From the NCBI GenBank assembly GCA_964493485.1, contig CAZBMQ010000006.1:12081-71581 (forward strand): 59,501 bases of DNA. The letters are read 5' to 3'. The stretch comes from an uncultured Candidatus Saccharibacteria bacterium (GTDB lineage: Bacteria > Patescibacteriota > Minisyncoccia > Minisyncoccales > JANBVM01). A program made the translations under genes and the position numbers. The notes under the pieces are model-generated. The model had not been told where the DNA came from. It made no database searches and worked only from the letters and a program-made list of their open reading frames with translations. Each line of letters begins with the position of its first letter. Position 1 is the stretch's first letter. Shown piece after piece: positions 44,583 to 47,167 of the stretch.

Positions 44583-44976
44583 ATAAAGGTATTAGAAAGC
44601 ACTCTTAAAGTAAATATGGTTTTTTAGAGTTGTCCCGACTATTCTTTTTATTCGAGGATTTGATCCTGGTCCAGGATGAACGCTGGCGGCGTGGATAAGG
44701 CATGCAAGTCGAACGGACCTTATGCTTTGCATAAGGTTAGTGGCGAACGGGTTAGTAACACGTGGGTAACATACCGCCGAGACAGGGACAACCCAGAGAA
44801 ATCTGGGCTAATCCCTGATGGCCTGGTAATTGATTATTCTTTTACCAGTAAAGGGTTTCGCAAGAAACCGCTCGGCGAATGGCCTGCGGCCTATCAGCTT
44901 GTTGGTAGGGTAATGGCCTACCAAGGCTATGACGGGTAGGCGGAGTGAGAGCTTGTCCGCCAACAATGGCACTGAG

Positions 44977-45008
<32 letters not shown>

Positions 45009-45525
45009 CGAGAATATTGGTCAATGGGGGAAACCCTGAACCAGCGACGCCGCGTGCAGGAAGAAGGCCTTCGGGTTGTAAACTGCTTTTCTCCGGGAGC
45101 AAGGGAGTAATCCCTGAGAGTACCGGAGGAATAAGGGGATGCAAATTCTGTGCCAGCAGCCGCGGTAAGACAGAATCCCCAAGCGTTATCCGGATTTATT
45201 GGGCGTAAAGGGTCCGTAGGCGGTCCGTCAAGTTTTCTGTTAAATCTCTAGGGCTTAACCTTAGAGCCGCAGAAAAGACTGACGGACTAGAGGGCGTTAG
45301 AGGTTGATGGAACGCTCGGTGTAGGGGTGAAATCCGTTGATATCGAGCGGAACACCGAAAGCGAAGGCAGTCAACTGGGGCGACCCTGACGCTGAGGGAC
45401 GAAAGCGTGGGGAGCAAAAAGGATTAGATACCCTTGTAGTCCACGCCCTAAACGATGGACACTGGCTATCTGTAGTGTCGACCCTACAGGTGGCGAAGCT
45501 AACGCGTTAAGTGTCCCGCCTGGGA

Positions 45526-45557
<32 letters not shown>

Positions 45558-46029
45558 AGACGGGGGCTCACACAAGCGGTGGATCATGTGGCTTAATTCG
45601 ATAACAAACGAGGAACCTTACCAGGGCTTGACAGGCTAGTGAAATCCGCCGAAAGGCGGACTACCCACAAGGACACTAGCCCAGGTGCTGCATGGTTGTC
45701 GTCAGCAGGTGTCTTGAGATGCTCCCTTAAATGGGGAAACCTGCGTAACCCTTGCCCTATGTTTCACGTGTCATAGGGGACTGCCGTAGATAATACGGAG
45801 GAAGGTGAGGATGACGTCAAATCAGCATGGCCCTTTGATGTCCTGGGCTGCACACATGATACAATGGTCAGGACAATGGGTTGCTAAGGAGAAATCCGGA
45901 GCTAATCCCATCAAACCTGATCTCAGTTCGGATTGAGGTCTGCAACCCGACCTCATGAAGCCGGAATCGCTAGTAATCGCCAATCAGCCATGTGGCGATG
46001 AATATGTCCCTGAGCCTTGTACTCACCGC

Positions 46030-46892
46030 CCTGAAATAAAGTGCCTGGTAGGTAAATCAGCTAATAGGTGACTCGTTTATTAAAAATTTGTTTAAACGAG
46101 AAATCCTATTTTATAGCCAAAAATAGCATCCTATTTTCTGTAAAGAGATAGGGGAGAGCTTGAGGCGAAAGGCAGCCCTCCAACCTTAATGGGTTGAAGA
46201 GATAAGACGACTTCTGTTGGGCGGTCAGGAGGAAGTCTCTTTATCTTTAAGCTCTATTTGAGGGATGCCTGAAAGAGTTGATTTACTGACCCAGGGAGAT
46301 CCTGATAAGGAAAGAAGCTGGTACCTGTCAGGAAGTCAGCGAGGTAATAGTACCTTATTTATCTTGACGCTATGCATGTCCAAAGATAAGATAAGGGAAG
46401 GACCTCACCTATCTATGCTTACTGAAGATTATGTTATTGGATTAACAGATGGAGAAGGAAGCTTTACAGTGTTTCAGAGAAAAATTGGAAAGTACCGTAA
46501 GATAGAGTGTCATTTTTATGTGAAGATGAGAAAAGAAGAAAAAGAATTATTAGAGAGGTTGAAAAAATTTTTTGGATGTGGTCGAGTCTCTTTTCAGAAA
46601 GATAAACGAAGAAATCATAGTGATTGTTATCGCTATGAAGTGGGGAACATAAAAGAATTGAGACAAAAAATAATTCCAGTTTTTAAAGGGAGATTGTTAA
46701 GCAAGAAGAGAAAGAAGGATTTTGAGATATTTTGTAAGATTTTGAAGCTTGTGGAAAGTAAGGCACATTTAAGCGAGGAAGGATGGGAAAGAATTAAAAA
46801 GTTGAAAGGAAAGATGCATAGATAGGGCTCCGCCCGGTACGGGAAATCCGTACGCCGGGAAGGAACGAGAAAGCTAGTTTCAAGCACTCAAT
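46030..46892 (+). mobile_element. Group II (IIC-like) intron in 16S at E. coli about 1402/1403, 863 nt; boundary could shift by 2 nt
   Basis: D1 base CCTGG/CCAGG, EBS1 loop GGGCGGT complementary to the junction ACCGCCC, J2/3 AGC, D3 GAGGT/ACCTC, 11-bp D4, CGC-triad D5, end CTCAAT. Confidence 0.85.
46415..46825 (+). CDS. Single-motif LAGLIDADG homing endonuclease (136 aa) in intron domain IV
   Basis: YVIGLTDGEGSF motif, beta-saddle F.V.MR..E..LL..L..FFGCG.V, Y.V..IKEL...IIP.F; the upstream 50 codons of the track ORF are ribozyme sequence. Confidence 0.92.
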   Translation: MLTEDYVIGLTDGEGSFTVFQRKIGKYRKIECHFYVKMRKEEKELLERLKKFFGCGRVSFQKDKRRNHSDCYRYEVGNIKELRQKIIPVFKGRLLSKKRKKDFEIFCKILKLVESKAHLSEEGWERIKKLKGKMHR

Positions 46893-47167
46893 CCGTCACG
46901 CCAAGCGAGCTGGGAATAGCTGAAGTCCCGCCGATTAAGGTGGGCCTAAGCTAGGTTCAGTGAGAGGGGCGAAGTCGTAACAAGGCACGGGTAGCGGAAG
47001 CTGTCCGTGGATCACCACATTTTATTTTTTGATTGGTCGACTAGGATTGAAATCTGGAATTCGGATTTTAATTCTAGGGGTGTTGATCGAGGAGCCTTTA
47101 AGTCTCGATCGTTGAAATAAGTCGGGACAACTCTAAGAAACCATAAAAAGACTTATATAAAATAATT

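Follow-up and report, generated by a model that had tools for sequence, protein, structure and literature searches.

Results

A group II intron in the 16S rRNA gene

The window, by which we mean the whole 59,501-nt stretch of DNA that was analysed, carries a 16S rRNA gene in two exons, separated by an insert with an endonuclease ORF. The features are listed in Table 1. The DNA belongs to a Parcubacteria/Patescibacteria genome (0.86 Mb, 94% complete) with one 16S gene in the assembly. Because this gene is the only one, the insert must, on this indirect argument, be excised from the rRNA. Exon 1 ends in ...CUUGUACUCACCGC, at approximately E. coli position 1402, where a run of C leaves the boundary ambiguous by 0-2 nt. 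When the two exons are ligated, the universal decoding-centre sequence GUACxCACCGCCCGUCAC is regenerated. Comparison of the exon ends with those of 15 relatives placed the insertion at approximately 16S 1396-1404, with the ORF between domain III (D3, end 46406) and domain V (D5, start 46828).

Table 1. Features of the split 16S rRNA gene and its intron, in positions of the window.
Feature	Position	Strand	Details and basis
16S rRNA exon 1	44648..46029	+	Rfam SSU match, sequence reading, comparison of relatives' exon ends
Group II (IIC-like) intron, CPR 16IS9 / position-1400 class	46030..46892	+	About 863 nt; homologous introns at the same 16S region
5'-terminal linker CCUGAAAUAAA, before the conserved 5' motif	46030..46040	+	Family alignment by eye
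Domain I, begins GUGCCUGGUAGG	46041..46299	+	3' limit approximate; conserved 5' motif in all relatives
Domain II hairpin UCCUGA...UCAGGA	46300..46333	+	Rfam RF01998 alignment, sequence reading
Domain III	46341..46406	+	GAGGU...ACCUC basal stem, CAUAGUA-type core, GAAGGAC end; RF01998 alignment 46297-46403; conserved in relatives
Domain IV basal stem, 5' arm CCUAUCUAUGC	46408..46418	+	Holds the start codon
LAGLIDADG_1 homing endonuclease ORF	46415..46825	+	136 aa, 411 nt, single motif VIGLTDGEGSF, stop TAG
Domain IV basal stem, 3' arm GCAUAGAUAGG	46816..46826	+	Holds the codons His-Arg-stop
Domain V	46828..46863	+	Lower helix, bulge A46852 C46853, 4-bp upper helix, GAAAU loop; nhmmer D5 profile, family comparison, MFE
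J5/6 and putative weak domain VI	46864..46892	+	Intron end ...CACUCAAU; relatives' 3' ends ...CGCAAU, ...GAUAAU; inferred
16S rRNA exon 2	46893..47015	+	CCGUCACGCC... to GGAUCACCACAUUUU; sequence reading and blastn of relatives' exon 2

Judged by its sequence, the insert is a group II (IIC-like) intron of the published CPR 16IS9, or position 1400, class. The Rfam model RF01998 (group-II-D1D4-1) gave 21 bits (E 0.3) on the window at 46297-46403, which is below its cut-off of 35 bits, and relatives exceeded this cut-off (L023 40.1, L005 38.3, L013 37.8 and L055 37.0 bits). RF00029 had no match in the window, and the Rfam D5-D6 model likewise remained unmatched. The ends were compared with the GUGYG and AY termini. 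GUGCC is found at 46041, preceded by an 11-nt linker, and the 3' end is AU if the boundary lies at 46892, with 0-2 nt of ambiguity from the run of C. Such a 5'-terminal linker has been described for the rns-1396 family (PMC13190283). In the relatives, the 5' motif of domain I is GCGCCUGGCAGC, downstream of a short A/U-rich linker, and the core of D2-D3 that they have in common reads ...GAAGUCAGC..CAUAGUA..GAAGGAC.

The insertion point was found to shift among members of the family. It lies at about 1396/1397 in the L013 type, at 1398/1399 in L005, at 1399/1400 in L002 and at 1402-1404 in the window and L003. As a result of these shifts (46029-46031 and 46892-46895 in the window), the 5' linker differs accordingly in length and sequence. 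A group I intron was rejected as an identity for the insert, since no Rfam group I match was found in it up to E 10 and its ends break the U...G rule. In some relatives, the 16S gene has a second intron further downstream, which is of group I (L020:2105-2354 with 78 bits and L007:1142-1353 with 58 bits in Rfam).

In D5 of the window, the CGC triad is at 46831-46833, and six pairs (46833-46838 with 46854-46859) lead up to the 2-nt bulge, in the same register as in relatives. The D5s of the relatives have the CGC triad, a G.U wobble in every case, a C-G neighbour in all but L032 (C.A), the 2-nt bulge at canonical spacing and a GAAA(U) loop. Divergent D5s (L005, L011, L013 and others) escaped the nhmmer D5 profile and were placed by eye. 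In the window, G46832 is opposite A46860 and C46831 is opposite A46861, instead of U and G, and the window D5 has neither the G.U wobble of the triad nor the neighbouring Watson-Crick pair. The G.A and C.A at the triad, together with the unmatched Rfam D5-D6 model, make the self-splicing competence of the intron uncertain. Since an intron in the only 16S gene needs to be removed, this oddity must be accommodated: the variant D5 is either tolerated, or requires a helper, or is an error in the MAG.

The endonuclease ORF

On sequence comparison, the ORF is a LAGLIDADG homing endonuclease of the single-motif, homodimer type, predicted to cleave the intron-less 16S allele site-specifically. It scored 58.6 bits with Pfam LAGLIDADG_1 against a cut-off of 23.1. 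Counted along the 136 aa, the domain begins at residue 8, and the motif GLTDGEG has Glu at the catalytic position. In a comparison with the PDB, the ORF aligned with each half of the I-OnuI/I-SmaMI family at E of about 1e-29. Homologs of the endonuclease were found in 91 of 401 genomes of the phylum. A related CPR enzyme has reportedly been characterised biochemically (PMC11270868). A Met near the C terminus is a conserved feature of the protein (fungal homologs end in ...KNKMN), and it gives rise to a palindrome AUGCAU in the 3' arm of the stem described below, which pairs with AUGCAU of the 5' arm in many relatives. LAGLIDADG homologs of 31-38% identity are also present in many MAGs of Acidobacteriota, Chloroflexota, Omnitrophota and others (L061-L110). 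A search for the D5 of the family gave no match in L061-L110, and these were left out of the intron set.

An 11-bp helix joins the start and stop of the ORF

An earlier note on this DNA had claimed that the start and stop codons of the ORF lie in two 11-mers that are perfect reverse complements of each other. In this study, we found that CCTATCTATGC (46408-46418) and GCATAGATAGG (46816-46826) are 100% complementary over 11 nt and lie 397 nt apart, with ATG (46415-46417) and TAG (46823-46825) both within the arms. The ends of the helix are fixed, since A46407 is opposite G46827 and T46419 is opposite T46815, so that no extension is possible. Domain IV (D4) comprises 46408-46826 (419 nt) and is flanked by single unpaired bases, A46407 after D3 and G46827 before D5. 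As had also been claimed, the ORF fills D4: it takes up 411 of the 419 nt, so that 7 nt precede the ATG and 1 nt follows the TAG. The helix lies exactly between D3 and D5 and has counterparts in all 44 introns compared below, which confirms its assignment as the D4 stem of a group II intron.

The helix was contained in the MFE fold of the whole insert, which took in 14 exon bases; these left the helix unaffected. In the full-intron fold in silico, its pairing probability was 1.00, with the AUG included. The predicted folded RNA thus agrees with the proposal that the start codon is sequestered. The duplex alone was calculated at -18.9 kcal/mol and is the longest perfect version in the family. 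At least 11 perfect pairs occurred in 8 of 20,000 random pairs of 27-nt windows taken 300-500 nt apart within the 59.5-kb window, and in the 49 further ORFs of 100 aa or more that the window contains, start and stop were complementary over 7 bp at best. A chance origin of the helix was rejected by these two controls and by the permutation test of cognate arms described below.

A hairpin of domain I at 46131-46153, CCUAUUUUCU GUAA AGAGAUAGG, has CCUAU...AGAUAGG in common with the D4 stem (46408-46414 and 46820-46826). Because the hairpin and the stem share this sequence (the repeat pair is complementary at 10 of 11 positions), cross-pairing between the D1 and D4 arms is possible on paper.

The stem is present in all 44 introns compared

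The stem was examined in 44 introns at this 16S site, namely that of the window (L001) and 43 relatives; the set was drawn from a 401-genome sample of the phylum (14 introns) and from GTDB species genomes (30 introns). A whole-D4 MAFFT alignment was dropped for pair counts and RNAalifold, as the arms were out of structural register. An unconstrained duplex search in wide windows was also discarded because of spurious pairings with D3 in several relatives. In place of the alignment, we used anchored stems determined for each sequence, with duplex search windows bounded by the end of D3 and the start of D5, and a permutation test of cognate versus non-cognate arms. A stem between the end of D3 and the start of D5 was found in 44/44 introns. 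The mean energy was -11.8 kcal/mol for cognate arms and -8.1 kcal/mol for non-cognate arms, and none of 20,000 permutations matched the observed sum.

The stem occurs in 28 distinct versions, with CG, UA and GC exchanges at levels 2-8; as the duplexes were fitted singly to sequences that are related, the significance of this covariation is inflated, and its direction is still clear. The arm pairs include CCUAUCUAUGC/GCAUAGAUAGG in the window and CUCUAAUGCA/UGCAUUAGAG, CCCUAAUG/CAUUAGGG, CCUGUUCUU/AAGAACGGG, CCUAAG/CUUGGG, CUCUAUG/CAUAGAG and CCGAU/AUCGG in relatives. In introns with an ORF that ends in TGA rather than TAG, the 5' arm has lost the matching U.

A scan of 151 genomes with RF01998 gave six introns, two of which had no ORF. 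The ORF-less introns are about 400 nt long and belong to the same family and the same 16S site (L113:1584-1605 on the plus strand and L114:1480-1495 on the minus strand). Their D4 is a hairpin of 7-8 bp, CUUUAUGU-CUAACAAA-ACAUAAAG in L113 and CCCUAAU-UAAU-AUUAGGG in L114, and both are of the same sequence family as the ORF-bearing stems. In these hairpins the UAG-bearing 3' arm is retained, and the 5' arm even contains an AUG. Since these two relatives retain the stem with nothing to translate, it appears to be mainly a part of the ribozyme architecture. As a separate observation, two contigs with typical introns of the CPR family (L037 and L038) belong, by their labels, to Gammaproteobacteria MAGs, which could reflect mis-binning or a connection with the rns-1396 family of Thiotrichaceae.

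Placement of the two codons relative to the stem

In all 35 introns with an ORF that ends before D5, the stop codon is the last codon before D5 and lies within the 3' arm (TAG in 31 and TGA in 4). In the same 35 introns, the AUG is fully paired in 11, has two of its three bases paired in 8, stands immediately 3' of the last pair in 12, is in an internal loop in 2, and is absent or farther off in 2. In 6 of the 12 introns with the AUG immediately 3' of the last pair, the stem itself holds another in-frame AUG, which precedes the first by two codons (AUG CAU AUG). [quoted passage not shown]

In whole-D4 folds, the mean probability of being unpaired was 0.20 for the start AUG, 0.36 for all triplets and 0.30 for other AUGs. 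For the start AUG this probability was below the median of its own D4 in 30/44 introns, below 0.5 in 40/44 and below 0.2 in 27/44. The expectation that the geometry is conserved in homologous introns was therefore borne out for the stop codon, which is in the 3' arm in all 35 of these introns, and not for full pairing of the start codon. These results indicate that burial of the start region is a tendency of the family and no invariant.

In ten introns (L003, L004, L005, L006, L011, L013, L019, L022, L027 and L028), the LAGLIDADG frame reads on through D5. The stop codon falls within the 5' strand of D5 in L004 and within its loop in L005, or else it is reached in D6, with just 7-10 nt left to the 3' splice site. 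Five of these introns (L013, L019, L022, L027 and L028) have a conserved tail at the C terminus of the protein, ...DSLDALDxHVQWGAIExx, which D5-D6 encode.

Discussion

We suggest that the helix is the D4 basal stem of a compact IIC-like intron and is chiefly architectural, with the closing of the folded intron to translation as a consequence, and we give this reading a probability of about 0.7. The stem would loop out the 411-nt endonuclease gene and bring domain III and domain V side by side, so that the ribozyme core could form and the intron could be removed. The gene fills the D4 loop and takes its stop from the UAG of the 3' arm, with its AUG in the 5' arm; the burial of the start and stop codons would then arise because the ORF fills the loop. 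Once formed, the stem would probably block initiation at 46415. Synthesis of the endonuclease would then be limited to the time until transcription reaches the 3' arm, some 400 nt past the AUG, or to moments when the stem opens transiently. A translating ribosome would hold D4 open until it terminates within the 3' arm, and ribosomes on the ORF and a closed D4 would be mutually exclusive.

The earlier note had suggested that sequestration of the start codon could limit translation of the nuclease to unfolded, nascent or processed RNA. Folds of truncated transcripts agreed with an AUG that is open in nascent RNA and closed when the 3' arm is present: for transcripts that end no later than 46812, the predicted probability of the AUG being unpaired was 0.41-0.91, and for those that reach 46830 or beyond it was 0.00. 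These predictions suggest that translation is feasible only on nascent or unfolded RNA; such a limit on translation is plausible and in line with the principle established for T4 intron endonucleases. The further suggestion that the stem shields the pre-rRNA from ribosome loading is speculation.

The 3' tail of the 16S rRNA may bear on how effective such a stem would be. In the window (47001-47015), the tail is GGAUCACCACAUUUU, with CCACA in place of the CCUCC anti-Shine-Dalgarno. Elsewhere, the tails of L002 (GGAUCAUAUCAUUUU) and L006 (GGAUCACUACAUUCU) deviate, and L005, L008 and L011 have CCUCC. With a tail that has no CCUCC, initiation may rely less on Shine-Dalgarno pairing than on how open the RNA is, and the stem would then be more effective.

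A different reading is that burial of the start codon was itself selected, and that the stem is a long-range switch that allows the endonuclease to be made only from RNA that is nascent or unfolded and prevents ribosomes from reaching the pre-rRNA and the ribozyme core. We consider this unlikely. The overlap of the initiation region with the 5' arm in every intron and the low probability that the start AUG is unpaired in most of them speak for it, as do the length and stability of the window stem and the open-then-closed prediction for truncated transcripts. There is also a precedent, since in T4 efficient splicing depends on sequestration of the RBS of the intron endonucleases (PMC2988022), and with the deviating 16S tail of the window the accessibility of the start site may count for more than usual. 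Against it, the ORF-less relatives retain the stem, the AUG is fully paired in a minority of introns and often lies just 3' of the last pair or in an internal loop, and the enrichment of pairing at the start AUG is modest. In addition, the frame of the ten relatives that runs through D5 or D6 is unlike a design that shields the core from ribosomes.

Another reading, also unlikely, is that the D4 stem acts as a co-transcriptional timer in an rRNA gene. Ribosomes would load on the AUG only in the interval of about 400 nt before the 3' arm appears, and termination of the last ribosome at the UAG would zip D4, stop translation and license folding of the ribozyme and 16S maturation. If this were true, the timer would be a translation-gated splicing switch made of the start and stop codons themselves.

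The stem would be irrelevant to initiation if the ORF began upstream and the ATG at 46415 were an internal Met. Upstream of 46415 the frame stays open as far as 46265; ATGs in this frame at 46265 and 46376 would give 186 or 149 aa, and the closest relative (L031) has a long open upstream frame too. However, the upstream extension contributes no domain, the Pfam domain begins at residue 8 of the shorter form, and the extension overlies the conserved D2-D3 RNA. Furthermore, the homologous ATG is the sole in-frame ATG in 21/35 relatives, with in-frame stops 3-60 nt upstream. A start at 46265 or 46376 is thus improbable, and translation very probably starts at 46415.

LtrA binds DIVa, which contains its own start region, and some LAGLIDADG proteins act as maturases. 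By analogy only with these cases and with domain IVa of group II RTs, the stem might be a protein-binding site, for example for the endonuclease as a maturase that autoregulates its translation, but this is highly improbable, because Pfam found no RT or maturase domain in the ORF, PMC11270868 likewise reports none, and the stem sequence varies freely with compensation, which suits a plain helix and not a sequence-specific site.

The reading of the stem as chiefly architectural can be compared with known systems. Previous work on 16IS9 (position 1400) of CPR 16S rRNA reported group II intron-like insertions with single-domain LAGLIDADG endonucleases (Tsurumaki et al. 2024, PMC11270868). The intron of the window is similar to these in host lineage, 16S region, the LAGLIDADG_1 ORF, the absence of a reverse transcriptase and the group II D1-D4 signature of its relatives. 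The terms "start codon" and "domain IV" do not occur in PMC11270868. The window intron differs from 16IS9 in that it is inserted 3-6 nt further 3' than most relatives and in its D5 mismatches opposite the triad.

The rns-1396 intron family of Thiotrichaceae was reportedly treated by Salman et al. in 2012. It is now described as a family of IIC group II introns with the LHE in DIV, and its bacterial members are listed only from Thiotrichaceae (Liu et al. 2026, PMC13190283). The intron of the window has in common with this family the IIC backbone, the 5'-terminal linker, a single-motif LHE in DIV and the position at 16S ~1396-1400, whereas the host phylum differs. The terms "start codon" and "translation" are absent from PMC13190283.

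[quoted passage not shown] The rationale given there is that ribosomes are excluded from the ribozyme core so that splicing works (PMC2988022). In both systems a stable RNA structure, here a predicted one, covers the initiation region of an intron-borne endonuclease gene. In T4 the Shine-Dalgarno is hidden by a local hairpin, the effect of which is lifted by a late promoter within the intron, whereas the structure of the window is a 400-nt long-range helix which is part of the ribozyme, pairs the start with the stop and has no known internal promoter. RT-encoding group II introns (Ll.LtrB/LtrA) also have an ORF looped out of D4, with the initiation region in a D4 structure. The window intron resembles domain IVa of Ll.LtrB in both respects and differs in that it has no RT or maturase; the likeness lies in gene layout.

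The intron class is already published, and, judging by the wording of the two papers on these introns, the codon-in-stem geometry appears to be undescribed for the family. This geometry goes a small step beyond what is known already, both of ORFs that loop out of D4 and of starts of intron endonucleases that are occluded by structure. For now, it amounts to one more structural detail of the published class and is no new kind of system. If the stem does gate translation, it would be a long-range counterpart of the T4 hairpin control, inside an essential rRNA gene. These results suggest that, in the most streamlined bacteria, the same nucleotides serve both a mobile endonuclease gene and a ribozyme, the gene borrowing its stop, and often its start, from the stem with which the ribozyme folds.
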